DNA from: a virus
DNA length: 64,000 bases
Direction: 5' to 3' (one strand)
IMG/VR virus record: IMGVR_UViG_3300044712_001292
Location: 1 to 64,000 of that record
Shown here: positions 31,418-58,309 of the stretch, in pieces
How positions within the stretch are numbered: position 1 is the stretch's first letter
Layout of the letters: the number at the start of each line of letters is the position of its first letter
Notes under the pieces: model-generated
The model's database searches: none
The model's input: the letters and a program-made list of their open reading frames with translations, nothing else
Told to the model about the DNA's origin: nothing
Translations under genes and position numbers: made by a program

Positions 31418-32208
31418 TCCGACAGGGGAAGTTCGGTCCCATCCAAGTCGTACAGACCGACGAGGTGCAACAGGTGCGCCTGAATGGTCAGGTACAGGGA
31501 TCGGTGTTTCTCAGCCCGACAGCCCGTTCCGTCGGTATCGACGTTGACGGTCCTGGACCTGTCTCCGCCTCAGCATACAGCTACGGCTGGCTTATCGCGG
31601 GGGTGCACCGTCCCTATGGCTCTGGTGTCATGGTCGGTCTCGGCTCTGGCGTCGGAGTTGTACAGCTCCTCTACAACTTCCCGCACATCGATCTGACGGT
31701 TATCGAGATTGACCCCGTCATGGTCGAAGTCGCGCTGCGGTCCCTGCCGCTTCTCGATCACTATATGAACGAAGGTCGGCTGAACATCATCATAGCGGAC
31801 GCCGCGGAGGCGCTGGATACATCTGACCGGTATACCTTCGGCTGTGCTGATGCTTACGACGGAGGCGCGTCCTTTCAGCTGTTGACCGGGTACCTGACGA
31901 AACTGTGTCAGGTGTGCGACGACGTCTATATCAACGCGATCGACAGTCCGCTCGGTCGGCATATCAGTGCTATATCGGCGACGTGCTTCGATGCCGGGAA
32001 TCCACTGCTGTACGGCATGCGGGCTGTCGCTCCGGAAGTCGCCCACGTAACGGCACCAAAGGCGAACTATGTGCTGACATCCGCAGATGTGCAGTTACCC
32101 GATCTGGACGCGTTCATTCCGTTCGCAGCGTTGACGCAGCCTGCGGCGGACTACGGCCGTCTCTGCTGGAATCTCATGATCTCGGACGTTCTTGATGTAG
32201 GTGGTTGA
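31414..32208 (+). CDS. spermidine-synthase-like SAM-dependent methyltransferase
   Basis: VGLGSG, VIEIDP, IIADA and DAYDG motifs. Confidence 0.8.
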   Translation: MIRQGKFGPIQVVQTDEVQQVRLNGQVQGSVFLSPTARSVGIDVDGPGPVSASAYSYGWLIAGVHRPYGSGVMVGLGSGVGVVQLLYNFPHIDLTVIEIDPVMVEVALRSLPLLDHYMNEGRLNIIIADAAEALDTSDRYTFGCADAYDGGASFQLLTGYLTKLCQVCDDVYINAIDSPLGRHISAISATCFDAGNPLLYGMRAVAPEVAHVTAPKANYVLTSADVQLPDLDAFIPFAALTQPAADYGRLCWNLMISDVLDVGG

Positions 32209-32231
32209 CATTCGCACGAGCGACATAGCAT
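32205..32231 (+). promoter_or_regulatory. promoter candidate for tRNA-like element and pth2
   Basis: TTGACA-N15-TAGCAT. Confidence 0.4.
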
Positions 32232-32242
32232 CCTGCATCGAT

Positions 32243-32320
32243 GTCCTCGTAGCATTATGGAATGCACCTCGCCTACTACCGGCAGCACGGAAGCGGGTTC
32301 GATTCCCGCCGGGGACGCCA
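32243..32320 (+). tRNA. atypical tRNA-like element, irregular anticodon arm (loop TACTACC, nominal CTA)
   Basis: acceptor GTCCTCG/CGGGGAC, D-stem GCATT/AATGC, GGTTCGATTCC T-arm, encoded CCA. Confidence 0.65.
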
Positions 32321-32389
32321 AGTCGCAGCTGCTACTTGCGTATTACGCAGAACTCTGTAAGAGGTCGGACATGCGGATTCACGAGGTAG

Positions 32390-32707
32390 TCTAACGAACA
32401 AGCGCCACGACTGTATGTCGTGGTTCGAACGGATCTGCCGCTGGGCCTACAAGTAGCCCAGGCATGCCACGCATCTCACGAAGCGGGTCATAGATTCGGA
32501 GCAGCCAAGGGCTGCTTTCTCATAGTCTGCATGGTACCCGGTGAGGCGGAACTCACCACAGTAGCCCACGAGCTGAACGCCCGTGGGCTTCCCTGTTTCG
32601 TCTTTCACGAGCCAGATCTCAACGGCCAGGCAACCGCTCTGGCCGCGCTTGTCGACCACTCCGGTCGCAAGCACTTCAAACGCCTACCCCTTTGGAGGCA
32701 CTCATGA
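32390..32707 (+). CDS. Pth2-family peptidyl-tRNA hydrolase (start uncertain; first in-frame GTG at 32420)
   Basis: LYVVVRTDL...QVAQACHA...FHEPDLNGQATALA...LPL. Confidence 0.8.
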   Translation, partial: SNEQAPRLYVVVRTDLPLGLQVAQACHASHEAGHRFGAAKGCFLIVCMVPGEAELTTVAHELNARGLPCFVFHEPDLNGQATALAALVDHSGRKHFKRLPLWRHS

Positions 32708-33018
32708 CACATACCCTAACCACCGAAGAGACCGCTGTCCGGGCCAGGATCGCGGAGATTCGAGCAGAACTCAAAGACCTGGCCGCGAAGCGGAAGCTGA
32801 TCCTCGGCGTCTACCGCATGCCACACGGTACGCCGGAACATAAACAGGCCATGGTTAACGTCCGCCAGGCCCTGGGTATTCCGGAGGACTATATGGTGAA
32901 GTGGGCTCCGCACGCCATCCCGAACCGCTTCCTGTGGAGAGCGGAGACCCACCAGAAACATCTGCAGCTGGCTGAGCTGACGGGGAAGCCTCATGTCCGA
33001 GAGCCATTGCCAGCCTGA
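32704..33018 (+). CDS. hypothetical protein
   Basis: GGAGG RBS, ATGA overlap with pth2 stop. Confidence 0.7.
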   Translation: MTHTLTTEETAVRARIAEIRAELKDLAAKRKLILGVYRMPHGTPEHKQAMVNVRQALGIPEDYMVKWAPHAIPNRFLWRAETHQKHLQLAELTGKPHVREPLPA

Positions 33019-33023
33019 GGCAT

Positions 33024-33236
33024 ATGGATAAGGTGCGGTCTACGGAGAAAGCCGTGAACCGCACCGACCTCGACCAGATCGAAGCCATTGACCGCTGTAA
33101 CGCCTTCGAGCTGGGGTTCCTCAAGGCAGCCCATGACGCTGGCTTGTCGGAGGCTGAATATCGCAAAATGCGGAAGGCGGCGGAAGACGCGACGGAATTG
33201 GCGAAGCAGTACGGGCTGAAGGTCCCCCAAAAATAA
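33024..33236 (+). CDS. small AFxxGFxxAAxDxGL-family protein
   Basis: GAGG RBS; paralog of 60523 and 61254 ORFs. Confidence 0.75.
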   Translation: MDKVRSTEKAVNRTDLDQIEAIDRCNAFELGFLKAAHDAGLSEAEYRKMRKAAEDATELAKQYGLKVPQK

Positions 33237-33239
33237 TAC

Positions 33240-33267
33240 TTGCTATCACTACGACCGTAGCTATAAG
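33240..33267 (+). promoter_or_regulatory. promoter candidate for leader 1 / tRNA array 1
   Basis: TTGCTA-N16-TATAAG. Confidence 0.45.
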
Positions 33268-33281
33268 GCCACCAGCTTTCC

Positions 33282-33413
33282 ATGAGACTCATACCCACCG
33301 TCAAAGCCACGACCTGGCCCACCGCTCAGCGGATGCAGCCGCAGGGGTGCTTTGTACGCACAGGTTCCGAGGCGAAGAATGATCACATTCCAGCATCGGG
33401 GTTCTCAGGGTAG
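33282..33413 (+). CDS. leader peptide 1 (43 aa) of tRNA array 1 attenuator
   Basis: MRLIPTVKATTWPTAQRMQPQGCFVRTGSEAKNDHIPASGFSG*; 19 of 20 amino acids, no Tyr. Confidence 0.75.
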   Translation: MRLIPTVKATTWPTAQRMQPQGCFVRTGSEAKNDHIPASGFSG

Positions 33414-33452
33414 ACCAGGCTGACCATAGCCAGACTCCCGAGAACCCCGGAT
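33395..33452 (+). promoter_or_regulatory. antiterminator of attenuator 1
   Basis: ATCGGGGTTCTCAGGG (33395-33410) pairs with CCCGAGAACCCCGGAT (33437-33452), the terminator 5' arm. Confidence 0.8.
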
Positions 33453-33475
33453 CCCAGATCCGGGGTTCTTTCTTT
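33441..33475 (+). terminator. intrinsic terminator (attenuator 1)
   Basis: 13-bp perfect stem AGAACCCCGGATC/GATCCGGGGTTCT followed by TTCTTT. Confidence 0.9.
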
Positions 33476-33577
33476 CACAAGTTCTCACACTGCGTCGGGT
33501 TCGCCTTCGGGGTTCCTCATAAGCTCGGCTTAGCACGCAGACGGATAGTTTAACAAATCTATAGCGTATACAGTTGT

Positions 33578-33652
33578 GGGTGCCTAGCTCAGCGGTAGAG
33601 CACTTCGTCGACATCGAATAGGTCGCAGGTTCGATCCCTGCGGTACCCACCA
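33578..33652 (+). tRNA. trnV: tRNA-Val(GAC)
   Basis: cloverleaf, loop TCGACAT, CCA. Confidence 0.9.
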
Positions 33653-33699
33653 TGACGGGGCTGATAACATCGGCCCGCCGGATCCGTAACCGGCCGTAC

Positions 33700-33776
33700 T
33701 GCGGGATGCCTGGAGGTAGTTCCAGATCGGTCTCATAAGCCGACATAGGCGTGTGCAAGTCACGCTCCCGCAACCA
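33700..33776 (+). tRNA. trnM: tRNA-Met(CAT)
   Basis: loop CTCATAA, acceptor TGCGGGA/TCCCGCA, CCA; atypical T-loop. Confidence 0.8.
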
Positions 33777-33920
33777 AGGTCCTCGCACCCGCCAGTGAGG
33801 CGTAAGCGATACAGGGGTCCGCTGTATCGGCCACGTTTTTCCGTCCACACCACCCGCCAGAGCACTGGCAACTAGCCAAGCCGTTGTCGAAGGACCGGAG
33901 GAGGGGTGGTGTGCGGTTCA

Positions 33921-33997
33921 TCCCCTCGTAGACCTAGGTATCGAGGTACAGGTCTGTGGCACCTGGAAGTCTGGTGAAAGTCCAGAACGGGGGACCA
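33921..33997 (+). tRNA. trnH: tRNA-His(GTG), atypical
   Basis: CAGGT-CTGTGGC-ACCTG; bulged acceptor stem; T-loop TGAAAGT. Confidence 0.7.
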
Positions 33998-34105
33998 GTT
34001 TCAGCGCAATCTCAGCGCTTCTCGATCGGCGTGAGCTGTCGAGGACCTGCTCCGGGGAAGAGGGAGTGCTCTACGCCTCAGATAAGAACGAGGCGAGCGA
34101 TAGCT

Positions 34106-34180
34106 GGCTCTCTAGCATAAATAGTAATGCACCCGCCTGAAGAGCGGACAAACTCGGCGCGATACCGAGGGGAGCCACCA
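34106..34180 (+). tRNA. trnF: tRNA-Phe(GAA)
   Basis: loop CTGAAGA, CCA. Confidence 0.85.
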
Positions 34181-34203
34181 ATAGTGTCCACGTGGACACA
34201 GAT

Positions 34204-34277
34204 GGACCGTTAGGTTAAAAGTAAACCATCAGATTTTCACTCTGAAATCGACGGAGCGTTACCGTCACGGTCTACCA
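34204..34277 (+). tRNA. trnE: tRNA-Glu(TTC)
   Basis: TCAGA-TTTTCAC-TCTGA, CCA. Confidence 0.85.
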
Positions 34278-34280
34278 GAT

Positions 34281-34354
34281 GCACCTTTCTGTCAGTAGTA
34301 GGCACTCTCCCTCTCACGGAGAAAACGTCGGTGCGATCCCGACAAGGTGTACCA
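34281..34354 (+). tRNA. trnE: tRNA-Glu(CTC)
   Basis: TCTCC-CTCTCAC-GGAGA, CCA. Confidence 0.85.
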
Positions 34355-34358
34355 GAAC

Positions 34359-34434
34359 GGTCCCAGGGGCAGCCAGTTTAAGCCGACACCCTGTCACGGT
34401 GTAGTACCGAGTGCGACTCTCGGTGGGATCGCCA
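34359..34434 (+). tRNA. trnD: tRNA-Asp(GTC)
   Basis: ACACC-CTGTCAC-GGTGT, G73, CCA. Confidence 0.85.
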
Positions 34435-34438
34435 GAAT

Positions 34439-34513
34439 GCGCTAGCCACCGGTACAGTGGGGCTGGACCTGATAAGTCTGGACAGCACAGTTCGACTCTG
34501 TGATAGCGCACCA
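34439..34513 (+). tRNA. trnI: tRNA-Ile(GAT)
   Basis: loop CTGATAA, TTCGACT T-loop, CCA. Confidence 0.75.
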
Positions 34514-34517
34514 GCAT

Positions 34518-34602
34518 TGGCAGGACGGATAACGGTTTTCCAGCACGCTGTTAACGTGCCGCACCGAAAGGTCACCTGGGGGTTCGAATCCCTCCCTGCC
34601 AG
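34518..34602 (+). tRNA. trnN: tRNA-Asn(GTT) with long variable arm
   Basis: GCACG-CTGTTAA-CGTGC; extra ACC-GAAA-GGT hairpin; no encoded CCA. Confidence 0.8.
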
Positions 34603-34607
34603 ATTAT

Positions 34608-34677
34608 GGGCTGTACAGTCATGGCGACGAAGAACCTCCGCAAGGTTCTTGATACGGTTCGATTCCGTAACGGTCCA
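34608..34677 (+). tRNA. trnA: tRNA-Ala(CGC)
   Basis: loop TCCGCAA, G3:U70, A73; no encoded CCA. Confidence 0.75.
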
Positions 34678-34682
34678 AGAAT

Positions 34683-34757
34683 GGGCACGTAACTCAGCGC
34701 TAGAGTACCTGATTTGCACTCAGGAGGTCGCAGGTTGAAATCCTGTCGTGTCCACCA
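34683..34757 (+). tRNA. trnA: tRNA-Ala(TGC)
   Basis: loop TTTGCAC, G3:U70, CCA. Confidence 0.9.
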
Positions 34758-34809
34758 TCTTGATCCTCGGAAGCCGGAGTCCGAGGTACCAGAATCTAGA
34801 CCGGCGTGT

Positions 34810-34883
34810 GGGCCTGTCGTTCATCAGTAGGACATCTGCATGGCATGCAGAAGGGCGGCGTGCGATTCGCCGCAGGTCCACCA
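34810..34883 (+). tRNA. trnA: tRNA-Ala(GGC)
   Basis: loop ATGGCAT, G3:U70, CCA. Confidence 0.85.
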
Positions 34884-34886
34884 CAT

Positions 34887-34960
34887 ACGTACGTCAGTCC
34901 AGCGGCTGCATCGGTTTCCAAAACCGGTTGAGGTTGGGGCAGCACCAACCGTACGTGCCA
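34887..34960 (+). tRNA. trnW: tRNA-Trp(CCA)
   Basis: loop TTCCAAA, acceptor ACGTACG/CGTACGT, G73, CCA. Confidence 0.8.
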
Positions 34961-35113
34961 CTCGTGGATGTCCACCTCCAGAGGGACGCCGATGGAGGAC
35001 CACGAAACGCCGCGCTCACGTCGGGGGCGCACTATAGCCGGTAGGTTACCGAGGGCTAGTGAGGGCCGTATTCTCCGTCAGGAGTATGCAGTGGCCACGA
35101 CAGGACACCTTAC

Positions 35114-35189
35114 TGGCGCGTAGCTCAATTGGCAGAGCAGCAGTTTCTGACACTGCCGGTTCTTCGTTCGACTCGAAGCGCGCCAACCA
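35114..35189 (+). tRNA. trnQ: tRNA-Gln(CTG)
   Basis: GCAGT-TTCTGAC-ACTGC, CCA. Confidence 0.9.
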
Positions 35190-35194
35190 TTCGA

Positions 35195-35270
35195 TACTCC
35201 GTGGTGTAGCGGCGCTGCACGGCTGGCTTTGACCCAGAAGGTGGAGGCTCGACCCCTCCCGGAGTAACCA
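35195..35270 (+). tRNA. trnQ: tRNA-Gln(TTG)
   Basis: loop CTTTGAC, CCA. Confidence 0.85.
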
Positions 35271-35273
35271 CAT

Positions 35274-35350
35274 CAGTACGTAGCTCAGCTTGGTAGAGCA
35301 CTTGCCTTGGGCGCAAGAAGTCGGAGGTTCAAATCCTCTCGTACTGACCA
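35274..35350 (+). tRNA. trnP: tRNA-Pro(TGG)
   Basis: CTTGC-CTTGGGC-GCAAG, canonical arms, CCA. Confidence 0.9.
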
Positions 35351-35351
35351 C

Positions 35352-35425
35352 GAGCACAGAGCCAGACGGCTAGGCAGTAGCCTGCAAAGCTACCTAACTG
35401 CGTTCGACTCGCAGTGTGCTCTCCA
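35352..35425 (+). tRNA. trnC: tRNA-Cys(GCA)
   Basis: loop CTGCAAA, U73, CCA. Confidence 0.9.
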
Positions 35426-35428
35426 GAT

Positions 35429-35504
35429 GCCGACTTAGTGTAACTGGAAACACGCAACCTTTCCAAGGTTGAGTCGCTCGGATCGTACCCGGCAGTCGGC
35501 TCCA
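35429..35504 (+). tRNA. trnG: tRNA-Gly(TCC)
   Basis: CAACC-TTTCCAA-GGTTG, U73, CCA. Confidence 0.8.
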
Positions 35505-35507
35505 TTC

Positions 35508-35583
35508 GTGGGTTTAGCTCAGCAGCTAGAGCGATTCATTGCCAATGAATAGGCGGCAGGGGCAGCACCTGTAACCCACACCA
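35508..35583 (+). tRNA. trnG: tRNA-Gly(GCC)
   Basis: ATTCA-TTGCCAA-TGAAT, CCA. Confidence 0.85.
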
Positions 35584-35586
35584 CGC

Positions 35587-35661
35587 GCGGGTATATCATA
35601 CCAGCTAATGAGCCTGCCTTCCAAGCAGGAGAACACGGGGCAGCACCGTGTACCCGCACCA
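35587..35661 (+). tRNA. trnG: tRNA-Gly(TCC), second copy
   Basis: CCTGC-CTTCCAA-GCAGG, CCA. Confidence 0.85.
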
Positions 35662-35663
35662 AT

Positions 35664-35741
35664 GCCCGGATAGCTCAATTGGATCAGAGCGCTTCGCTAC
35701 GGACGAAGAGGTTGCAGGATCGTGCCCTGCTCTGGGTGCCA
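35664..35741 (+). tRNA. trnR: tRNA-Arg(ACG)
   Basis: CTTCG-CTACGGA-CGAAG, CCA. Confidence 0.9.
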
Positions 35742-35772
35742 CAGTAGCGTATAGAGGGAGGTCAACTCACAT

Positions 35773-35848
35773 GCCCGACTAGCTCATCTGGAAGAGCGTC
35801 CCGGTCCTAACGGGAAGGTGCCCCGTCCGAGTCGGGGGTCGGGTGCCA
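35773..35848 (+). tRNA. trnR: tRNA-Arg(CCT)
   Basis: TCCCG-GTCCTAA-CGGGA, CCA. Confidence 0.85.
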
Positions 35849-35849
35849 T

Positions 35850-35927
35850 GCGATCATCGCCTAACTGGATATGGCACTGCCCTCCGAAGGCAGACTAATG
35901 CAGGTTCGAGTCCTGCTGATCGTGCCA
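35850..35927 (+). tRNA. trnR: tRNA-Arg(CCG)
   Basis: CTGCC-CTCCGAA-GGCAG, CCA. Confidence 0.9.
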
Positions 35928-35928
35928 T

Positions 35929-35997
35929 GCCGGACGTCCAAGACACGCAGGCCTTCTAAGCCAGCTCAGCTGGGGCAAGCACCCAGGTCCGGTGCCA
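35929..35997 (+). tRNA. trnR: tRNA-Arg(TCT), 69 nt with truncated D-arm
   Basis: loop CTTCTAA, acceptor GCCGGAC/GTCCGGT, CCA. Confidence 0.65.
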
Positions 35998-36088
35998 TAT
36001 CATCGGCTCATGCAGTCGCTACGGGCAGGGATCGGGGCGTCCGGTAAGACTCCCTTGACGATATGGGCGGACGGTATATTAAGCGTTC

Positions 36089-36316
36089 ATGCACACTGCT
36101 ATAGACGCCAGACTCGCACTTCTGTGGACATGTCAGGCATGCAAAGCTGTGAATTGGTATACTACATCGCGGTCGAAGGAGGCGGAGGAGGCGAGGTTGG
36201 AGGCGGCTAAGGCGATGGAGTGTGATCCAGAAGACCTGTCTGTTATACCTGAGATCCTCTGCTGCCGTACCTGTGAAGAACCGCACCGGTTGCCGGATGA
36301 GATCGGTGCATCCTAA
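36089..36316 (+). CDS. small zinc-ribbon-like protein inside tRNA array
   Basis: WTCQAC...CRTC; upstream TTGACG...TATATT. Confidence 0.6.
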   Translation: MHTAIDARLALLWTCQACKAVNWYTTSRSKEAEEARLEAAKAMECDPEDLSVIPEILCCRTCEEPHRLPDEIGAS

Positions 36317-36323
36317 ATCGTAT

Positions 36324-36398
36324 GCCGTTAACGCCTAGATAGCGAGGCACCGTTTTCGTAAAGCGGACAGAGGGGCGCACGTCCTCTTGACGGCACCA
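36324..36398 (+). tRNA. trnT: tRNA-Thr(CGT)
   Basis: loop TTCGTAA, CCA. Confidence 0.85.
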
Positions 36399-36467
36399 GT
36401 ATAGAATAAAGGGCAAGAGTGTGCTAAACGCGCTAGAGAAGGTCCAAGTCACTCGCTTACCACATGT

Positions 36468-36541
36468 GCTCCGTTAAGTAAACGGTATACTAAAGATTTT
36501 GTAAATCTTAATTCTGTGTTCGACTCACAGACGGAGCACCA
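36468..36541 (+). tRNA. trnT: tRNA-Thr(TGT)
   Basis: AAGAT-TTTGTAA-ATCTT, CCA. Confidence 0.85.
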
Positions 36542-36549
36542 ATAAATAC

Positions 36550-36623
36550 GCCGTTGTAAGATAGTGGCAGTCTACCTCCCTGGTATGGAGGAAGCGGGTT
36601 TTCGATTAACCCCGACGGCACCA
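36550..36623 (+). tRNA. trnT: tRNA-Thr(GGT)
   Basis: CCTCC-CTGGTAT-GGAGG, CCA. Confidence 0.85.
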
Positions 36624-36625
36624 AC

Positions 36626-36698
36626 GCATCGGAGGCGGAACAGGCTCCGCACTCAGCTTTTAACTGAGGGTAAGCTGGTTCGAGTCCAGCCCGATGCA
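36626..36698 (+). tRNA. trnK: tRNA-Lys(TTT)
   Basis: CTCAG-CTTTTAA-CTGAG; no encoded CCA. Confidence 0.85.
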
Positions 36699-36703
36699 CA
36701 GAC

Positions 36704-36777
36704 GCACCCTGAGCAGGCTGGCATTGCACTCGGTTCTTACCCGAGGGGAGAAGGTTCGATTCCTTTAGGGTGCACCA
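36704..36777 (+). tRNA. trnK: tRNA-Lys(CTT)
   Basis: CTCGG-TTCTTAC-CCGAG, CCA. Confidence 0.85.
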
Positions 36778-36782
36778 TCCAT

Positions 36783-36858
36783 CTGGCCATCGCCTAACCT
36801 GGCAAGGCACTGCGTTCGGGTCGCAGGGATGCTGGTTCAAATCCAGCTGGCTAGACCA
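36783..36858 (+). tRNA. trnP: tRNA-Pro(CGG)
   Basis: CTGCG-TTCGGGT-CGCAG, CCA. Confidence 0.9.
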
Positions 36859-36934
36859 TGTTAGTCCATCACTCAGTTAGCAGAACGATGTCACGAGGTA
36901 GAAGCGATCATCGAGGTCAAACCGATGTATGTCA

Positions 36935-37009
36935 GGGAGTTTATATCAGTGGCAGATAGCTCGGCCTACACCCGAGATGTGGGTGGTTCGATTCCACCAA
37001 CTCCCACCA
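36935..37009 (+). tRNA. trnV: tRNA-Val(TAC)
   Basis: CTCGG-CCTACAC-CCGAG, CCA. Confidence 0.9.
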
Positions 37010-37063
37010 CTTCTATGACGGCGTGTCCTCCGTGGAGTGATTCAGCCAGTCACCTACCATTAT

Positions 37064-37140
37064 CGGCCGTGGGAGTGCACGCGCCTCACTCGTCTTATGA
37101 ACGAGCCAAGACTGGGCCGAGCACCCGGTACGGCCGACCA
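37064..37140 (+). tRNA. trnI: tRNA-Ile(TAT), atypical
   Basis: CTCGT-CTTATGA-ACGAG; acceptor CGGCCGT/ACGGCCG, A73, CCA; T-loop CCGAGCA. Confidence 0.7.
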
Positions 37141-37161
37141 GCTGTATACGCAGGAGTCATC

Positions 37162-37710
37162 ATGCGCTGTCTCGTCCTTAACCAGGATATGTCGTTTCTT
37201 CATATGACCACAGACGCCTTCGACGGCATCAAGCTGATGACGAAGGGGCGTGTACAGCCTTTGGCGACCTATGATAAGCGTCTGCGTTCAGAGAAGCACG
37301 AGTTCGTCATCCCGGCTGTAGTCCAACTGAAGGGGTACGTACACGTCGGCAAGCGTAGGCACGGGTTTACTCAGGCATCGCACCAGAACGTATTCGTTCG
37401 AGATGGCGAGCGGTGTGCGTACTGTGGGTGCAAGCTGACGCTGCGGAGTTGTACGAAGGATCACGTCGTACCGCGTTCTCGTGGTGGCAAAGACACGCTG
37501 TCGAATGTCGTCGCTTGCTGCAGGTCATGCAACGAGGAGAAGGCCGACAGGACGCTCGCGGAGTCGGGCATGAAGCTCCGCGAGGGCATAGAGCTGCGTC
37601 AGCTCACTGACGATGAGAAGCTGTCCGTCCTCCTGAAGACGGGGGCAGGTGCTGCAGAGCGGAAAGCATGGATCGGCTTTCTGAAGGCTACGGGGTTGAC
37701 ACTGTTCTGA
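37162..37710 (+). CDS. HNH endonuclease (McrA-like)
   Basis: LVLN N-terminus; RDGERCAYCG...TKDHVVPRSRGG...NVVACCRSCNEEK; AGGAG RBS; start re-called from 36925. Confidence 0.92.
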   Translation: MRCLVLNQDMSFLHMTTDAFDGIKLMTKGRVQPLATYDKRLRSEKHEFVIPAVVQLKGYVHVGKRRHGFTQASHQNVFVRDGERCAYCGCKLTLRSCTKDHVVPRSRGGKDTLSNVVACCRSCNEEKADRTLAESGMKLREGIELRQLTDDEKLSVLLKTGAGAAERKAWIGFLKATGLTLF

Positions 37711-37722
37711 CATCTCTATGAT
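37696..37722 (+). promoter_or_regulatory. promoter candidate for leader 2 / tRNA array 2
   Basis: TTGACA-N15-TATGAT. Confidence 0.45.
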
Positions 37723-37743
37723 GACGCTTATCCGAGTCATACT

Positions 37744-37821
37744 GTGAATACCGGCCTATCATCGCTGCTGTCGTCTTACCTCAGTTCCTATAGGAACACC
37801 GGGGACGGTGGCGCTTTGTAA
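37744..37821 (+). CDS. leader peptide 2 (25 aa, Leu/Ser/Tyr-rich) of tRNA array 2 attenuator
   Basis: GTG start; MNTGLSSLLSSYLSSYRNTGDGGAL*; 12 consecutive L/S/Y codons at 37756-37791. Confidence 0.8.
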   Translation: MNTGLSSLLSSYLSSYRNTGDGGAL

Positions 37822-37856
37822 CCCGAACATGCTCGGAACGCGCCCTCGAACCCCGG
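37799..37856 (+). promoter_or_regulatory. antiterminator of attenuator 2
   Basis: CCGGGGACGGTGGCGC (37799-37814) pairs with GCGCCCTCGAACCCCGG (37840-37856). Confidence 0.75.
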
Positions 37857-37883
37857 ATCCACAAGGTCCGGGGTTTTTCTTTT
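37848..37883 (+). terminator. intrinsic terminator (attenuator 2)
   Basis: AACCCCGGATC/GGTCCGGGGTT stem followed by TTTCTTTT. Confidence 0.9.
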
Positions 37884-37910
37884 ACAACGATATATGGTGG
37901 TTGCGATGAC

Positions 37911-37995
37911 GGGGGCGTGGCTTCGTTGGGAACTGGCACACCTTGCCGGCTTAGAACCGGTAGCTTTGAGAGTTCGAGTCTCTCCGCCCCTACCA
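37911..37995 (+). tRNA. trnL: tRNA-Leu(TAG)
   Basis: GCCGG-CTTAGAA-CCGGT, enlarged D region, short variable loop, CCA. Confidence 0.8.
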
Positions 37996-37998
37996 CAT

Positions 37999-38073
37999 AC
38001 CCGTGTAGCCCAATTGGCAGGAGGCGCTAGTGTGAGGCACTAGACAGTGCTGGTTCGAATCCAGTCGCGGGTA
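37999..38073 (+). tRNA. trnL: tRNA-Leu(GAG)
   Basis: CTAGT-GTGAGGC-ACTAG, short variable loop; no encoded CCA. Confidence 0.85.
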
Positions 38074-38079
38074 ATATAT

Positions 38080-38173
38080 GCACATCGTTCCGTACGGTAG
38101 TCTGTAAAACTATTGCGCACAAAAGCATGTACGGCGTACGCGCGGTTGGGTTAAACTCCCTCGATGTGCACCA
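38080..38173 (+). tRNA. trnY: tRNA-Tyr(GTA), atypical (no canonical D-arm)
   Basis: GTAGT-CTGTAAA-ACTAT; acceptor GCACATCG/CGATGTGC, A73, CCA. Confidence 0.7.
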
Positions 38174-38178
38174 GATAA

Positions 38179-38255
38179 CGGCGTATGATGCAACTGGCGA
38201 CATACCTGCCTCAAAATCAGGGTCTATGCGGGTTCGACTCCCGCTGCGCCGACCA
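38179..38255 (+). tRNA. trnL: tRNA-Leu(CAA)
   Basis: loop CTCAAAA, short variable loop, CCA. Confidence 0.8.
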
Positions 38256-38258
38256 CAA

Positions 38259-38347
38259 CCGGTAGTGGCGAAATCGGCTGAGACGCGACAGGCTTAAACC
38301 CTGCTACACGAGAAACATTGTGGGTTCGAGTCCCACCTACCGGACCA
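38259..38347 (+). tRNA. trnL: tRNA-Leu(TAA)
   Basis: loop CTTAAAC, long variable arm, CCA. Confidence 0.9.
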
Positions 38348-38350
38348 TTT

Positions 38351-38441
38351 GGAAGGTATTGCGACTTTAGTAAGCGACCCGAGTTCGAACCTCGGTGACA
38401 CGTCTGACGGCGTGAGGGTGCGATCCCCTGACCTTCCTCCA
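38351..38441 (+). tRNA. trnS: tRNA-Ser(CGA)
   Basis: CCGAG-TTCGAAC-CTCGG, long variable arm, CCA. Confidence 0.8.
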
Positions 38442-38444
38442 TAT

Positions 38445-38531
38445 GGAATATGAACCGACCAGGGTGTCGGCTCCGCTTGGAAAGCGGCTGGGCGCTTCGG
38501 CGCTGTGTTTCGAGTACACCGTATTCCGCCA
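38445..38531 (+). tRNA. trnS: tRNA-Ser(GGA)
   Basis: loop TTGGAAA, long variable arm, G73, CCA. Confidence 0.85.
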
Positions 38532-38533
38532 TT

Positions 38534-38619
38534 GGAACGTAAATCAGCATGGTGCTGAACCTCGGTGCTAACGAGTGTGGCCCTACGGGGCTGAGGGTCG
38601 GGTCCTCTGCGTTCCGCCA
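38534..38619 (+). tRNA. trnS: tRNA-Ser(GCT)
   Basis: loop GTGCTAA, long variable arm, G73, CCA. Confidence 0.85.
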
Positions 38620-38624
38620 CATAT

Positions 38625-38711
38625 GGATAGTGAACTGCTCGGGTGAGCAGCACCGGCTTGAAACCGGCAGGGCCCTACGGGGCTGGGGATCGAGACCTCC
38701 GCTATCCGCCA
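38625..38711 (+). tRNA. trnS: tRNA-Ser(TGA)
   Basis: loop CTTGAAA, long variable arm, G73, CCA. Confidence 0.85.
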
Positions 38712-39530
38712 TCACATATAGTCAGGTGGTTCGTCGATACCTTTCCATACACGTATCGATGCGTCGAAAAGGTACGGGAATATCGCCTCGAAAGCGTAGA
38801 TAGGCAGAAAGAGGAACTGATCGTGTTTCGCCCGACCCGTCGGGCTGTTATGCCCATGCTGGATGATATGTTCATAACCACTTACGAGCATCAGCCTGTG
38901 GACGTGCTGCCAGAACGCCTTCGATCTCGATCGAATAGCTGTGCGTGACGCAGCGCAGATGATGGCGAGACACGGCTGTATGATTGGAGGCATAGGTGTT
39001 TCGAACAGAGAGCACCAGACGGAGCTCAGACACCTGGCATACGACTCTTTGTAGCACTCGAGGATGACTTTGTCCCCGTCCTGCCGGTGGGTATGAACGA
39101 GATATCCATGCCTCGACATGGACGGTTTCCACGCTCCGAGGTTCATAAAGTCCAGTGGCGCCTGCACGGCTTGACGTACATCGTCGATGAAGCGAGGGGC
39201 GTGGTCGAATGGGAAGTGTGCGAAGAGCGTGTACTCCGGCAGGGCATCGTAGTGTTCGGCAATGTATCTGCAGTAGACTGTACCAGCGTACGCGCGCCTG
39301 TCGTAGATGGTATGTACATGCCGAAGAGGGAGGCAGCCACCGTCGCTGTAGCAGACGGTCCTACCGTTGATCAGGCGGAGCCAATCCCACGTATTGGACT
39401 CTTTGACGGCATAGTTCGCACACAGCGTCCAGTTCTCTGGCAAGTCGATGCGGTCTGTGTCGAGGTCGAAATCCCAGCTTCCGCGGTGGCCGTAAATAGA
39501 CTTCTTCGTAAGACGGAGGGGCGTCGGCAT
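38712..39530 (-). CDS. DUF3431-like protein (possible glycosyltransferase-related fold)
   Basis: YCRYIAEHYDALPEYTLFAH.PFDH and IRSRSKAFW motifs; start re-called at MPTPLR to avoid overlap. Confidence 0.65.
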   Translation of the reverse strand: MPTPLRLTKKSIYGHRGSWDFDLDTDRIDLPENWTLCANYAVKESNTWDWLRLINGRTVCYSDGGCLPLRHVHTIYDRRAYAGTVYCRYIAEHYDALPEYTLFAHFPFDHAPRFIDDVRQAVQAPLDFMNLGAWKPSMSRHGYLVHTHRQDGDKVILECYKESYARCLSSVWCSLFETPMPPIIQPCLAIICAASRTAIRSRSKAFWQHVHRLMLVSGYEHIIQHGHNSPTGRAKHDQFLFLPIYAFEAIFPYLFDASIRVWKGIDEPPDYM

Positions 39531-39618
39531 GCAGGAAACTACGTACGGTCCGTGATTCGTCAAGGTCTCTCGAAAAGACCACTTGCAGACCCCGGTGGCC
39601 TGCATAGTGTTCTCCGCT

Positions 39619-40272
39619 ATGTCAATAACGGTCCTCCGTAGCCCTGTCATCCCTCGGAACATGCAAGCGACACGGATGTCCGGCAGCCCCGTAGAAGACG
39701 CCTCGGTGATTCGTAAAGACGCGCCCATACCTGTCTTGATGCAGGAACACGACGGGTCGTTCCGAAACGCAGGCACGACGGTAGCCGCCGACCTCCCAGA
39801 GCCTAAGCTGACCGACCCGCTTCCACAGGATGCTGGTTCGACGAGAGCGAAGCCGGAGTTCGAAGTACCAGTAGGGCAGGCTATGGCGCAAGCCTCCGGA
39901 CTGGCGGTACCGGCGCCTGCGCAGCCAGCGCAGTTTAAGCCTTCTGTGTCCAATTATACGCCCCCTCCGACCCCAGCACCGCCAGCTAAACGCGTTCGGG
40001 TACGGATGTCGAATCCGGGCATGGGCAGGGTAACGGTCGGTGTTCGCGCGGTCAGTATCTCGGAAACCGTCGTCATCCTCGCTTACCCGCAGGACGCCGA
40101 CAACATCGTTGAACCCCCTGTCTGTGGTGGAGATAACCCCATCCGTGTCGAATTCGAGGGGAAGAAGTACACGTGCGTATTCGGTGGATGGACAACAGAA
40201 CTCGAGGGGATGTTCCTGGTCGTCCTCTTACGCACCGGAGAAGACGAGGACCCAAGCCCTTCTAAGGCTTGA
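39619..40272 (+). CDS. hypothetical protein
   Basis: Pro-rich linker then beta-rich C-terminal domain; start uncertain. Confidence 0.65.
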   Translation: MSITVLRSPVIPRNMQATRMSGSPVEDASVIRKDAPIPVLMQEHDGSFRNAGTTVAADLPEPKLTDPLPQDAGSTRAKPEFEVPVGQAMAQASGLAVPAPAQPAQFKPSVSNYTPPPTPAPPAKRVRVRMSNPGMGRVTVGVRAVSISETVVILAYPQDADNIVEPPVCGGDNPIRVEFEGKKYTCVFGGWTTELEGMFLVVLLRTGEDEDPSPSKA

Positions 40273-40308: not shown

Positions 40309-42162
40309 ATGACGACGTTCATTCCTCCCCCGCGGCCTGTGGCCGGAGCCGTCGGCAGCGGAGGCGCAGACAAGCCGGTTATCTCACCGTGGATGGACTA
40401 CGCATCGTTGACGATGCCGGACAGCCACCAGCTGGTGATGTGGTGGGCGCAGTATCTGTGGATGATGGATGGTAACTATAGGACGGCGATGGAGCGGGTT
40501 GCCGCCCACTTCCTGACCATCATCGAGTTCCCCGATCTGGAGCCTGACGAAGAGAGCGAGTGGCGCGACTTCTTCAGCAACCACATGAACTACCGCCGTG
40601 AGCTGCTTGCCTGCGCTCACGAATACCTCTGCTACGGCAACCTCATCGTTGGCTTGTACCTTCCCTTCAAGCGGTTCGCCCGGTGCCGTAACTGCTCCGT
40701 CGAGAACCCGCTGAGCGAAGTCGATTACGAGCTAGAGCTTGTTGATAAGCACCCGTACCTGCACTGGCGCAGGGTGCGCCCCTGCCCGAAGTGTCAGGAT
40801 AAGCAGACATATGAGGTTTTCGACCGCCGGTCGTCCGATCTATCCAAGGTGCGGCTGAACCGGTATTGCCCGCTTGAAATCGAAATCGCGTTCAACCGCC
40901 ACAGCCACAGCAAGAATATCTACTGGAATATACCGGACGATGAGGTTCGTGATATTCAGCAGAAAGCACGCATCCATATCGACGAGACACCGCTCGAGGT
41001 GCTGGAGACGGTCGCGGCCGGCGGTAAGCTGCACTTCAACAGCGACCTGATCCTGCATATCGATGAGCCGTGCATCAGCGGTGTTCGCACGCGTGGCTGG
41101 GGCGTGCCGCGTACGATCGCCAACTTCCGTACGGCGTGGATGCAGCAGGTGACGAGTAAGGCGGACCAGACCGCGATGCTCGACTACACACTCGGTATGC
41201 GCTGGATCTCCCCGTCGCCGACACCCGGCGGCACGGATCCGATGATGAATCGTGGCATGCAGGAGTTCGTCGCGCAGATCAGCGCTGCAGTGCGTGAGCA
41301 TCGTCTCAATCCGGCGTCATACCACACGTCACCGTATCCGCTGACGTACCAGTTCATGGGCGGTGAAGGCGGCGCACTCGTGCCTCCGGAGAAGCTCAAG
41401 TTCCGTCAGCAGGAATACCTGAACCAGCTCGGTATTCCTCTGGAATACCATCAGATGAACCTGAGCACGCAGGCCGCTCCCATGGCGCTGCGTCTGTTTG
41501 AGTCGTACTGGCAAGCCCTCCCGGCGTTCTACAACAAGATCCTTACGTGGATCACGGAGATGCTGTCCAAGACGTATAATCTCGAGGCGACATCGGTTCA
41601 GATGCAGAAGACCACCGTTGTCGACGACGCCAACTACAAGGCGCTGTTGCTGCAGCTGATGTCTGGCAACCAGCTTTCTCCCCAGACCGCGCTCGAGCCG
41701 CTTGGCATCAACGCGCACGAGGAGGTCAAGAAGGTCTACCGTCACCAGGACTATGTCAGCCGGGTACAGTCCGAGTTCGACGAGAAGGCCCAGAAGCGGC
41801 AGGAGATGGCGGCGTTCAAGTCGCAGGTACAGCAGCCGACGGCAGCCCAGCTCGCCCAGCAGCAGCAGGGCGGGGCGCCTCCGCCTCCTGGAACTCCGAT
41901 GGGTGGTGTTCCGACCGGAGGCATGCCTGGCGCATCTCCGAATACGCCTCAGACGCTGGCTGGTCTGGCGGATCAGGCGTCTCAGATCGCTCAGCAGCTC
42001 GTGACGCTGCCTGAGTTCGAGCGTAAACAGCAGCTCAAGCAGCTTCGTGAGGGGAACAAGCAGCTGCACGCCCTGGTTATGAGCGATATGGAGGACCTGC
42101 GGGAGGCAGCTGCCAACCAAGGTAAGCAGATGATCCTTCAACAGGGACCCCCGCAGGGCTAG
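40309..42162 (+). CDS. putative portal protein
   Basis: 617 aa helical protein with YRTAMERVAAHF, YLCYGN, two CxxC pairs, GWGVP and Q/P-rich tail; heads the head-gene cluster (inference). Confidence 0.55.
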   Translation: MTTFIPPPRPVAGAVGSGGADKPVISPWMDYASLTMPDSHQLVMWWAQYLWMMDGNYRTAMERVAAHFLTIIEFPDLEPDEESEWRDFFSNHMNYRRELLACAHEYLCYGNLIVGLYLPFKRFARCRNCSVENPLSEVDYELELVDKHPYLHWRRVRPCPKCQDKQTYEVFDRRSSDLSKVRLNRYCPLEIEIAFNRHSHSKNIYWNIPDDEVRDIQQKARIHIDETPLEVLETVAAGGKLHFNSDLILHIDEPCISGVRTRGWGVPRTIANFRTAWMQQVTSKADQTAMLDYTLGMRWISPSPTPGGTDPMMNRGMQEFVAQISAAVREHRLNPASYHTSPYPLTYQFMGGEGGALVPPEKLKFRQQEYLNQLGIPLEYHQMNLSTQAAPMALRLFESYWQALPAFYNKILTWITEMLSKTYNLEATSVQMQKTTVVDDANYKALLLQLMSGNQLSPQTALEPLGINAHEEVKKVYRHQDYVSRVQSEFDEKAQKRQEMAAFKSQVQQPTAAQLAQQQQGGAPPPPGTPMGGVPTGGMPGASPNTPQTLAGLADQASQIAQQLVTLPEFERKQQLKQLREGNKQLHALVMSDMEDLREAAANQGKQMILQQGPPQG

Positions 42163-56267: not shown

Positions 56268-56439
56268 AATCTACGTCATACCGGCTTCCCAGGTCGTTGT
56301 ATTCAACGATGACGGGGATCCTGTCGACATTACGTACGAGCGCGACCGCCTGATCCTCTGTACTGACGCTGGACAGTCGGATTTCGTCAACACGATAGCC
56401 GCTCTTAAGATATCCAAGCTGGACACGAAACGTGGCTGA
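56233..56439 (+). CDS. small hypothetical protein
   Basis: start re-called at MLVQLRH after GGAGGGG. Confidence 0.6.
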   Translation: MLVQLRHQESGKIYVIPASQVVVFNDDGDPVDITYERDRLILCTDAGQSDFVNTIAALKISKLDTKRG

Positions 56440-58309
56440 AAAGCTGACGAACATCGGTGCGCTATTGATCAGCGAAGCCCTTCCCGAGGAGCTGCGTCAG
56501 GATCAGTACGACCTCAATAAGAAGTCCGTACACGACCTGTTCATGAAAGTGGCCAACACGTACCCTGACCGGTACAAGGATATCCTGCAGAAGCTGTCGG
56601 ATGTCGGTGCCACGGCCGCGTGGACAGAGGGGGCGAGTGTTAGCCTCTCGGCGTTAAAGCGTTCAGCTGCGAAGGAGAAGGTGCTGGCTGATGTTCGCCG
56701 TCAGGTACAGTCCATCATCGACGACGATAACCTGACGGACGACCAGCGTGAGAAGGCCATTGTCGAGGCCCTCATCGACAAGATCGAGCCTGTACAGAAA
56801 GCGGTGTACGAAGAATCGAAGCAGGAGGGCAGCCCGTTCGTCATGCAGCTCGACAGCGGTGCGCGTGGAAAGAAGACGGATATCAACAGCCTGAGAGGCG
56901 CAGACCTGCTTGCTACCGACGCACAGGATCGCTTCCTGCCTGTCCCGCTGTGGCGGAGCTATGCTGAAGGCATGACCCCTGCGCAGTATTTCGCGGCAAG
57001 CTACGGACAGCGTAAGGGTGCGGTCGGCGTGAAGCTGGCTACTGCCGACGCAGGCTATATGGCCAAGCGCCTGGCGAATGCGGCACATCGGTTCGTTGTC
57101 AGCCGTGAGACACCTCCTCAGGCACGCCTGCCCGTTGGTCTTCCGGTACCAGTAAAGGACCGGGATAATGTAGGGTCATACCTCGCGCAGGACGCCGGAC
57201 CGTTGAAGGCAGGCACGTTGCTGACAAGCGATCACCTCGATGATCTCGAGGACGCGGGCGTCGACGAGATACTCGTCCACTCACCGATGACCGAGCCGTC
57301 TGAGGACGGCGGCATCAGCCGCCTCGCCGCCGGCAAGCGCCTGAGTTCAGGCCCAGCGCCTATCGGAGAGAACATCGGTCTTCAGTCGGCACAGACCATC
57401 GGCGAGCGTCTCAGCCAGGGCGCTCTAGGGGCGAAGCACAAAGAGCTGTCGTCAACGACGGTTGACAAGTCCGGTATCGAGTATTTGAACAGACTGCTCG
57501 ACGCCCCTGAGAACTTTCCAGAGGCCGGACCCCTTGCTGAGGAGGACGGCGTCGTCGGCAACATCGTGAAGGCTCCGCAGGGCGGCCACCATCTCTCCAT
57601 CGGTAAGCGGACCTATTACATCCCAGAGGGCATAAACCCGGTTGTAAAGTCTGGCGACCATGTGGAAGCCGGAGACGAGTTGACCGACGGAACACCCCAC
57701 CCGGAGCAGCTGGTGCGCCTTCGTGGTGTCGGCGAGGCTCGGCGGGTCTACATGCAGCACTTCCGCGACGCGCTGGCGGCATCCGGTGCGACTACGCACC
57801 GCCGGAATCTCGAGCCGGTTGTTGCGGGACTGTTGAATTGGGCCCGTGTCACGAACCCCGACGGCATAGGCGATAACGTGTACGACGACGTCGTACCAGT
57901 AAACCGTCTTATAAGTCAATACAAGCCAAGGCCTAATGCGAAGGAAGACTCTCCGGATATGTCGGTAAACCGCTATCTGGAAGAGCCCGTACTGCACTAC
58001 ACGCCGGGAACTCGTATTACGAAGCGGGTAGCTAACCATCTGAAGAAGTGGAATATCAAGTCCGTGTTCACGCACGACAGCCCTCCGGACTTCGAACCGC
58101 AGATGGTCAGGTCGATGTATTCCGTCTTCTACGACCCCGACTGGCGTACGAAACTCCTTGGTTTCTACACATCAAACGCGTTTATGCAGTCGCTACACCG
58201 TGGTGCTGAGTCTGACACGGCAAGCACGTCCTACGCCCCCGCCCTCGCCAAGCCGTCCGTTCTTGGCCGTCACCTCTCCTCCCTTGGCAAATACGGACAT
58301 GCCCGTTAG
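56432..58309 (+). CDS. rpoC: RNA polymerase beta-prime C-terminal half
   Basis: SGARG; bridge helix SYAEGMTPAQYF...RKG...TADAGYMAKRL; trigger loop GENIGLQSAQTIGERLSQ. Confidence 0.9.
   Translation: MAEKLTNIGALLISEALPEELRQDQYDLNKKSVHDLFMKVANTYPDRYKDILQKLSDVGATAAWTEGASVSLSALKRSAAKEKVLADVRRQVQSIIDDDNLTDDQREKAIVEALIDKIEPVQKAVYEESKQEGSPFVMQLDSGARGKKTDINSLRGADLLATDAQDRFLPVPLWRSYAEGMTPAQYFAASYGQRKGAVGVKLATADAGYMAKRLANAAHRFVVSRETPPQARLPVGLPVPVKDRDNVGSYLAQDAGPLKAGTLLTSDHLDDLEDAGVDEILVHSPMTEPSEDGGISRLAAGKRLSSGPAPIGENIGLQSAQTIGERLSQGALGAKHKELSSTTVDKSGIEYLNRLLDAPENFPEAGPLAEEDGVVGNIVKAPQGGHHLSIGKRTYYIPEGINPVVKSGDHVEAGDELTDGTPHPEQLVRLRGVGEARRVYMQHFRDALAASGATTHRRNLEPVVAGLLNWARVTNPDGIGDNVYDDVVPVNRLISQYKPRPNAKEDSPDMSVNRYLEEPVLHYTPGTRITKRVANHLKKWNIKSVFTHDSPPDFEPQMVRSMYSVFYDPDWRTKLLGFYTSNAFMQSLHRGAESDTASTSYAPALAKPSVLGRHLSSLGKYGHAR

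Follow-up and report, generated by a model that had tools for sequence, protein, structure and literature searches.

A putative pan-codon leader peptide predicted to gate a tRNA array by transcription attenuation in a large tailed phage

A 43-codon open reading frame (ORF) located ahead of a tRNA array in a virus record from IMG/VR, here called leader 1, is in our assessment rather likely to be a ribosome-mediated transcription attenuator, acting as a broad gauge of decoding speed which gates the 32 genes of array 1. The array-1 tRNAs are probably made only when ribosomes slow. According to the proposed mechanism, transcription would start just upstream of leader 1 and the ORF would be translated while the RNA is being synthesized. 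With fast decoding, the ribosome would reach the stop codon and cover the 5' arm of an antiterminator helix, leading to terminator formation and keeping array 1 off. If the ribosome instead stalls within roughly codons 2-35, the presumed sensing window, the antiterminator would form first and take up the terminator 5' arm, allowing read-through into the tRNA genes. As phage tRNAs accumulate, translation of the leader would become faster and the array would be switched off again, a negative feedback. Likely triggers would be a mismatch of the host tRNA pool, tRNA loss in infection, or host defences that cleave tRNAs.

The DNA analyzed here (the window) comprises the first 64 kb of a virus record of 103 kb, which is estimated to be ~53% complete. 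The phage DNA has a G+C content of 60%, and the window encodes a portal protein, a virion protein and a weak RNA-polymerase-beta-like match, which collectively indicate a large tailed phage. Judging from this weak match, the phage may encode its own RNA polymerase, which may count against a switch based on a hairpin terminator. Just upstream of the portal gene, a 7.4-kb stretch (32209-39582) contains the two leaders and the two tRNA arrays described below, together with an odd tRNA, a Pth2-like gene, two small ORFs, an HNH gene and a DUF3431 gene. In four metagenome relatives (L010-L013; 41-43% identity), the flanking genes adjoin and the whole tRNA block is absent, which identifies 32209-39582 as an inserted module. 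The main landmarks of this region and of the rest of the window are the following:

33578-37136, plus strand: tRNA array 1, 32 genes, 31 different anticodons, 17 amino acids served
37162-37710: HNH endonuclease gene, between arrays 1 and 2
37911-38708, plus strand: tRNA array 2, nine genes (four Leu, one Tyr and four Ser)
38712-39953, minus strand: gene for a 413-aa DUF3431 protein, on the strand opposite to that of the arrays, where the inserted module ends
40309-42162: portal protein gene
56432-58309: weak RNA-polymerase-beta-like match

The tRNA inventory was built from ARAGORN, Rfam and our own cloverleaf scan. ARAGORN reported 27 tRNA genes in the whole 103-kb record, all of them within the window at 32243-38441. 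No tRNA for Leu, Ser or Tyr is present in array 1. Several array-1 tRNAs are non-canonical in their T-loops or D-arms, and such non-canonical tRNAs were accepted only on the basis of a cloverleaf fold and an encoded CCA end. Among individual genes, the variable region of tRNA-Asn(GTT) (34517-34603) is 18 nt long, unusually for Asn, and the gene gives a weak match to the tRNA-Sec model, while tRNA-Leu(GAG) (37998-38074) has an apparently short variable region, unlike bacterial Leu tRNAs. The sole tRNA-Tyr (38080-38173) has almost no D-arm and its minimum-energy fold is not a cloverleaf. Outside the arrays, a solitary tRNA-like gene (32243-32320) scores 36.6 bits with the Rfam tRNA model; ARAGORN names no anticodon for it with default settings and Val(TAC) with relaxed ones. 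Directly upstream of the leaders, a small ORF (32420-32707) has a weak match to Pth2, a peptidyl-tRNA hydrolase (E 4e-4, under the Pfam cut-off), and in Bacteriophage DSS3_MAL1 a peptidyl-tRNA hydrolase gene is also found beside tRNA blocks. Inside array 1, between tRNA-Arg(TCT) and tRNA-Thr(CGT), lies a Cys-rich ORF of 75 codons (36089-36316) with zinc-ribbon-like spacing, for which no Pfam match was obtained.

The elements of leader 1 are arranged as follows, the promoter-like site being a putative assignment:

33240-33267, plus strand: promoter-like site, with a -35-like hexamer (33240-33245), a 16-nt spacer and a -10-like hexamer (33262-33267)
33282-33413, plus strand: leader 1 ORF, ATG at 33282, 43 sense codons, TAG at 33411-33413
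about 33299-33358, plus strand: long hairpin that folds inside the ORF
33398-33413, plus strand: antiterminator 5' arm, made of leader 1 codons 39-43 and the stop codon
33437-33449, plus strand: antiterminator 3' arm (the pairing of 33398-33413 extends over 33435-33449)
33441-33476, plus strand: intrinsic terminator 1, with a 14-bp G+C-rich stem (33441-33469), a 3-nt loop and a T-rich tract (33470-33476)

The composition of the leader 1 ORF had been singled out in an earlier note on this DNA, made from the letters alone, and its description held up. All 17 amino acids served by array 1 are present, and all have appeared by codon 35. The codon count likewise returned the single Trp, Cys, His, Asn, Asp and Glu codons, the absence of Tyr, the one Leu and the three Ser codons which the note had listed. 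It also confirmed the diversity stressed there: Ala is written with all four of its codons, Lys with both, and Thr, Arg and Pro with three each. AGA and ATA, which are rare codons, occur as well. Altogether, the ORF encodes 19 types of amino acid by 35 different codons. Of the stop-free windows of 43 codons taken from the phage, 1.1% contain 19 or more amino-acid types and 0.3% contain 35 or more distinct codons. The scarcity of Leu, Ser and Tyr codons is not significant by itself (p 0.07-0.10) and provides no independent signal.

The match between the ORF and array 1 becomes clearest at the level of anticodons. Under simple wobble rules, every array-1 anticodon except Arg CCT finds a codon in leader 1 (30 of 31), a coverage that none of 5000 dinucleotide shuffles matched. 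With a stricter pairing rule, 27 of the 31 anticodons are covered, again unequalled in 5000 shuffles, and with Watson-Crick pairing only, the number is 22 of 31, which was equalled in 146 of 5000. Four null models were considered, namely draws from the phage codon usage, segment shuffles, six-frame windows and windows from real genes. Coverage of at least 30 of the 31 anticodons occurred in ~0.01-0.04% of cases (means 19-22) and the presence of all 17 array-1 amino acids in 0.3-1.1%. Other ORFs of the same stretch cover only 14-20 anticodons. Since the anticodon set of array 1 was defined independently of the ORF, this test is a fair one. Codons for 17 amino acids and for 30 of 31 anticodon species would make leader 1 a wide gauge, in which each tRNA species is represented by one or two codons only. 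Single codons should be enough when a tRNA species is severely depleted, e.g. under attack by an anticodon nuclease, and may be insufficient for mild shortages. With its one Leu and three Ser codons, leader 1 is not blind to the array-2 tRNAs, and these codons blur the division of labour between leaders 1 and 2.

The start signals of leader 1 are less distinct. The -10-like hexamer of the putative promoter ends 14 nt before the ATG, which would mean a very short 5' untranslated region, and a consensus promoter scan misses the site as its last -10 base differs. The same -10-like bases double as a TAAGG-type ribosome-binding motif, located 13 nt from the ATG versus 6-8 nt at most genes, and the ribosome-binding signal of leader 1 appears weak. 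The usual translation signal of the phage is TAAGG(A) or TAGGA, 6-8 nt before the ATG and often preceded by TA (e.g. at 13230, 14475, 43572, 53918 and 58335); ~40% of the long ORFs are devoid of such a motif.

Downstream, the predicted RNA structures form a two-state switch. Terminator 1 folds at -25.1 kcal/mol and the antiterminator helix at -27.1 kcal/mol, the latter being at least as stable as the former. From 33441 on, the antiterminator 3' arm is the terminator 5' arm, so that the two helices are mutually exclusive. When the terminator-arm segment is added to the upstream RNA, the folding energy changes by -17.9 kcal/mol, compared to a drop of 5.8 +/- 2.7 in shuffled sequences, none of which did as well (0 of 2000). 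The final codons had been said to form about 15 bp with the terminator arm. The helix has 9+3 pairs separated by a 1-nt bulge, reaching 13-15 if flanking pairs are counted, and ~10 of the antiterminator pairs fall on terminator-arm bases. Similarly, of two Ser codons that had been placed inside the antiterminator strand, TCA (codon 42) is located there, while TCG (codon 39) overlaps it by only 1-2 nt. Folding with the footprint of a ribosome masked gave the outcome expected for attenuation: a ribosome at the stop codon gives the terminator, and a ribosome at any of five stall sites spread over codons 2 to 35 gives the antiterminator. The long hairpin inside the ORF could possibly be an RNA-polymerase pause or synchronising hairpin. 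No convincing anti-antiterminator was found in the leader 1 folds, where only ~4 weak pairs reach the antiterminator arm, and an untranslated leader 1 should therefore read through. Assignment to the T-box or to another known RNA family was rejected, as Rfam returned only tRNA-related matches, both at gathering score and, over 32000-39600, at E up to 1.

A second leader, located between the HNH gene and array 2, has the same layout as leader 1:

37696-37722: promoter-like site for leader 2, in the last codons of the HNH gene
37744-37821, plus strand: leader 2 ORF, GTG start at 37744, 25 codons, TAA stop
37799-37814: antiterminator arm, within the last codons of leader 2
37848-37886, plus strand: terminator 2 and its T-tract, with the same stem core as terminator 1

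Codons 5-16 of leader 2 are 12 consecutive Leu, Ser or Tyr codons, placed ahead of an array made only of Leu, Ser and Tyr tRNAs. This run is the longest of its kind in the six frames of the 103-kb record, the runner-up having eight codons, and leader 2 covers all nine array-2 anticodons. Its antiterminator is predicted to fold at -28.8 kcal/mol and its terminator at -20.7 kcal/mol, and the stem core shared by the two terminators has just two copies in the record. Only ~25 nt separate terminator 2 from the first tRNA of array 2, which leaves no room for a promoter, and array 2 can accordingly be expressed only by read-through of terminator 2. Of the arguments internal to this record, the setting of leader 2 speaks most strongly for leader 1 as a functional element and against a frame that is open by chance. 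A nine-codon mini-ORF (37718-37747), whose stop overlaps the GTG of leader 2 by four bases, would fall outside the transcript if the leader 2 promoter-like site is used.

Searches for an orthologous leader found none. With 32400-34300 as query, blastn against named phages returned a tRNA-Val gene as sole match. Viral contigs scanned with the 70-aa, 999-aa, 411-aa and 413-aa neighbours as protein queries, and with an alignment, yielded no relative or a single distant one without tRNAs. A terminator-pattern scan found only two plain terminators, both unrelated, and a scan of genome contigs gave no match. One neighbouring protein has a 97%-identical relative (P0002).

Leaders of similar design were found in other phages, among which Virus Rctr197k (KX853510.1) has 41 tRNA genes and shares one structural protein with the present phage at 37% identity. 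The counterparts are:

KX853510.1, 190382-190540, minus strand: unannotated 52-codon ORF ahead of a 30-gene array (Rctr197k leader)
MH588546.1, 81307-81426: CcrBL9 gp149, annotated 'hypothetical protein'
MH588546.1, 88798-88896: second CcrBL9 leader, an unannotated 32-codon ORF

The Rctr197k leader contains all 20 amino acids (p 0.004) and covers 29 of 31 anticodons (p 0.006). The antiterminator arm is made up of the four final codons of this leader, the predicted helix reaching -37.2 kcal/mol versus -30.5 kcal/mol for the terminator, and the stop codon follows immediately after this arm. The earlier note had advised a check of homologs for a composition conserved despite divergence in sequence, and this leader, unrelated in sequence to leader 1, displays such a composition, with 20 amino-acid types in 52 codons. 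Three of its Leu codons (CTG, TTG and CTC) are read by none of the tRNAs of the array behind it. The Leu block of Rctr197k has no evident leader, the large array alone having one. An unannotated Tyr-like tRNA follows the terminator of the Rctr197k leader.

In Caulobacter phages, the leaders are narrow, with 6-8 amino acids matched to small tRNA blocks. In CcrBL9, the tRNA block that comes after gp149 serves eight amino acids, and these account for 33 of the 38 gp149 residues (p 1e-7); in the second leader, 13 of 14 consecutive residues belong to the six amino acids of its own block. The peptide of this second leader is conserved in eight phiCbK-like phages from three genera, the carriers beside CcrBL9 being phiCbK, Magneto, Karma, Rogue, CcrBL10, RB23 and CcrSC. 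A promoter-like site is located 6-7 nt before its ATG, and a three-way compensatory change (alignment A2, columns 97/177/193) keeps both the antiterminator and the terminator helices. The CcrKarma record already annotates a rho-independent terminator at this conserved leader. In the one Caulobacter phage leader whose switch was mapped, the ORF extends beyond the antiterminator arm. Like leader 1, the Rctr197k and phiCbK-like leaders combine a promoter-like site, a short ORF, an antiterminator arm in or at the end of the ORF, a terminator and a tRNA block, and neither the Rctr197k nor the Caulobacter phage leaders have any sequence similarity to leader 1. Bacteriophage DSS3_MAL1, analyzed with a rough pipeline, showed no clear leader, and the stretch examined in Xanthomonas phage BUDD was without an annotated tRNA array. 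As a further observation, phiCbK has an unannotated tRNA-like gene with a long variable arm, anticodon GTA (Tyr) and a CCA end (L027, ~1708-1793; at the same place in L028-L031). It lies past the terminator and ahead of the first annotated tRNA, which is Phe, or Val in L031. The conserved phiCbK-like leader has a Tyr codon at position 5.

Collectively, the exclusive antiterminator and terminator, the masked folds, the coverage of 30 of 31 anticodons, the match of leader 2 to array 2 and the Rctr197k leader support, at the level of prediction, the broad sensor proposed in the earlier note, in which shortage of any of the tRNAs concerned would permit read-through.

Since single codons are possibly insufficient to register a mild shortage, the main rival explanation is a gauge of general translation speed. 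It retains the switch and the translated leader, which would report only the overall translation capacity, whether affected by the rate of initiation or elongation, by ribosome-targeting toxins or by amino-acid starvation, and the varied codons would constitute an average test message. Such a gauge is compatible with the presence of one or two codons only per species, with an Rctr197k leader that has all 20 amino acids, including the three Leu codons not read by its array, and with the missing anti-antiterminator, through which a total loss of translation would also give read-through. An average message would not, however, be expected to cover 30 of 31 anticodons, and both leader 2 and the Caulobacter phage leaders clearly match the amino acids of their own tRNA blocks. 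We consider this explanation unlikely. Within the attenuator model favored here too, a single codon per species may let leader 1 gauge the general speed of decoding and not each tRNA separately.

It is quite improbable that 33441-33476 is the plain terminator of the upstream protein genes, with the ORF a chance frame in the spacer and array 1 transcribed from its own promoter further downstream. The hairpin starts 205 nt past the upstream stop codon (33236), and a downstream sigma-70 consensus promoter was rejected, as the consensus scan found none on the plus strand past terminator 1. The ~100 nt between the terminator and the first tRNA of array 1 would agree with this explanation, and so would the apparently weak ribosome-binding signal, the fact that gene callers never called the ORF as a gene, and the frequency of 43-codon open frames, which are not rare at 60% G+C. 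They have to be weighed against a competing helix far beyond chance, an anticodon coverage with p ~1e-4, an array 2 of the same design without promoter room and a layout that recurs in unrelated phages.

A two-helix switch alone is no proof of ribosome control. The helix pair could be real and flipped by a factor acting in trans, i.e. a phage or host RNA-binding protein, a small RNA or a tRNA, with the ORF uninvolved, and a small hairpin carried by the 26-nt loop of the antiterminator could, according to the predicted fold, be its binding site. Against such a factor, the switch matches neither the T-box nor another Rfam family. A trans factor would furthermore leave unexplained the codon coverage, the Leu/Ser/Tyr run of leader 2 and the position of the stop codon, which is at the arm in each of the three leaders. 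We regard this possibility as very doubtful. Finally, although small annotated proteins such as CcrBL9 gp149 do adjoin tRNA blocks in other phages, it is hardly credible that the ORF encodes a small trans-acting protein positioned incidentally beside the terminator, as the 43-aa peptide has no homologue among 5.8 billion proteins and no Pfam match, its composition fits the tRNA set and not any fold, and its counterparts share the layout and not the sequence.

A ribosome-mediated attenuator at leader 1 would have well-known relatives. Multivalent leader-peptide attenuators include the enterobacterial ilvGMEDA and thr leaders, and other leader peptides are trpL, hisL, leuL and pheL. Classical attenuators use codon runs, and some leaders sense several amino acids together. 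With leaders of the ilv, thr, trp and his type, leader 1 would share a short translated ORF, a terminator competing with an antiterminator, a decision made by ribosome position and regulatory codons that correspond to what the operon supplies. Unlike the enterobacterial leaders, its targets are phage tRNA genes and not biosynthetic enzymes, and it samples 19 amino-acid types and 30 anticodon species by one or two codons each, whereas the enterobacterial leaders have runs for one to three amino acids. Leader 1 also has a three-segment design, in which the ORF itself ends as the 5' arm of the antiterminator and no anti-antiterminator of the kind seen in the 1:2 structure of trp- and his-type leaders is evident. 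Hence, the principle is already known from the trp, his, ilv and thr leaders, while the phage tRNA target, the pan-codon sensor and the three-segment design differ.

Leader-peptide attenuation is also known for a gene of the translation apparatus, as the attenuator of pheST, which encodes phenylalanyl-tRNA synthetase, has a Phe-rich leader. In both cases the signal would be the supply of charged tRNA, sensed for one amino acid to control a synthetase in pheST, and through a near-complete codon sample to control 32 tRNA genes in leader 1. T-box elements similarly place a terminator/antiterminator switch responding to tRNA state upstream of translation-related genes. In these, the specifier loop and the T-box motif contact uncharged tRNA directly and no translation is involved, whereas in leader 1 the ORF overlaps the switch. 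A further known system is the trn operon of Anabaena sp. PCC 7120, in which 26 tRNA genes stay silent until translational stress induces them (PMC8421152, PMC10272220). There too, a spare tRNA array is kept off until translation is impaired; control is exerted, however, at a promoter, through direct repeats bound by the repressor TrcR, and the operon is a cellular element, not a phage one (PMC8421152, PMC10272220). The 2021 report mentions no leader peptide, attenuation or terminator for this operon (PMC8421152). In a full-text literature search, no account of leader-peptide control of tRNA genes was found, nor any paper describing the Rctr197k or phiCbK-like leader ORFs.

To our knowledge, the control of phage tRNA genes has hardly been addressed. 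Why phages carry such genes has been asked for more than 50 years (PMC10264068), and it has recently been shown that phage tRNAs rescue infection from tRNA-cleaving defences (PMC10264068, PMC11555353, PMC11464382). If the proposed mechanism is true, the phage would be taking a direct measure of decoding and producing tRNAs as they are needed, under a feedback that is part of the circuit. What leader-peptide attenuation monitors would then include the supply of tRNAs in addition to that of amino acids, and its sensor could be a pan-codon test message in place of a run of one codon. Since conserved counterparts exist in cultured Caulobacter phages (phiCbK, CcrBL9 and relatives), the idea is directly testable in a standard laboratory host. 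It would also provide an annotation rule for many small unexplained ORFs that adjoin phage tRNA blocks. More generally, and here we see the case as evenly balanced, large phages may carry a self-limiting gauge of the tRNA pool, based on a very short test message with almost all codon classes readable by the array behind it. Any one of ~30 species, when limiting, e.g. once a host anticodon nuclease has cleaved it, would switch the whole array on and a refilled pool would switch it off. In the present phage, two such gauges would split the genetic code between Leu, Ser and Tyr, whose tRNAs are class II with a long variable arm, and the other 17 amino acids, thereby building from trp-style attenuation a circuit for both inducible counter-defence and codon adaptation.
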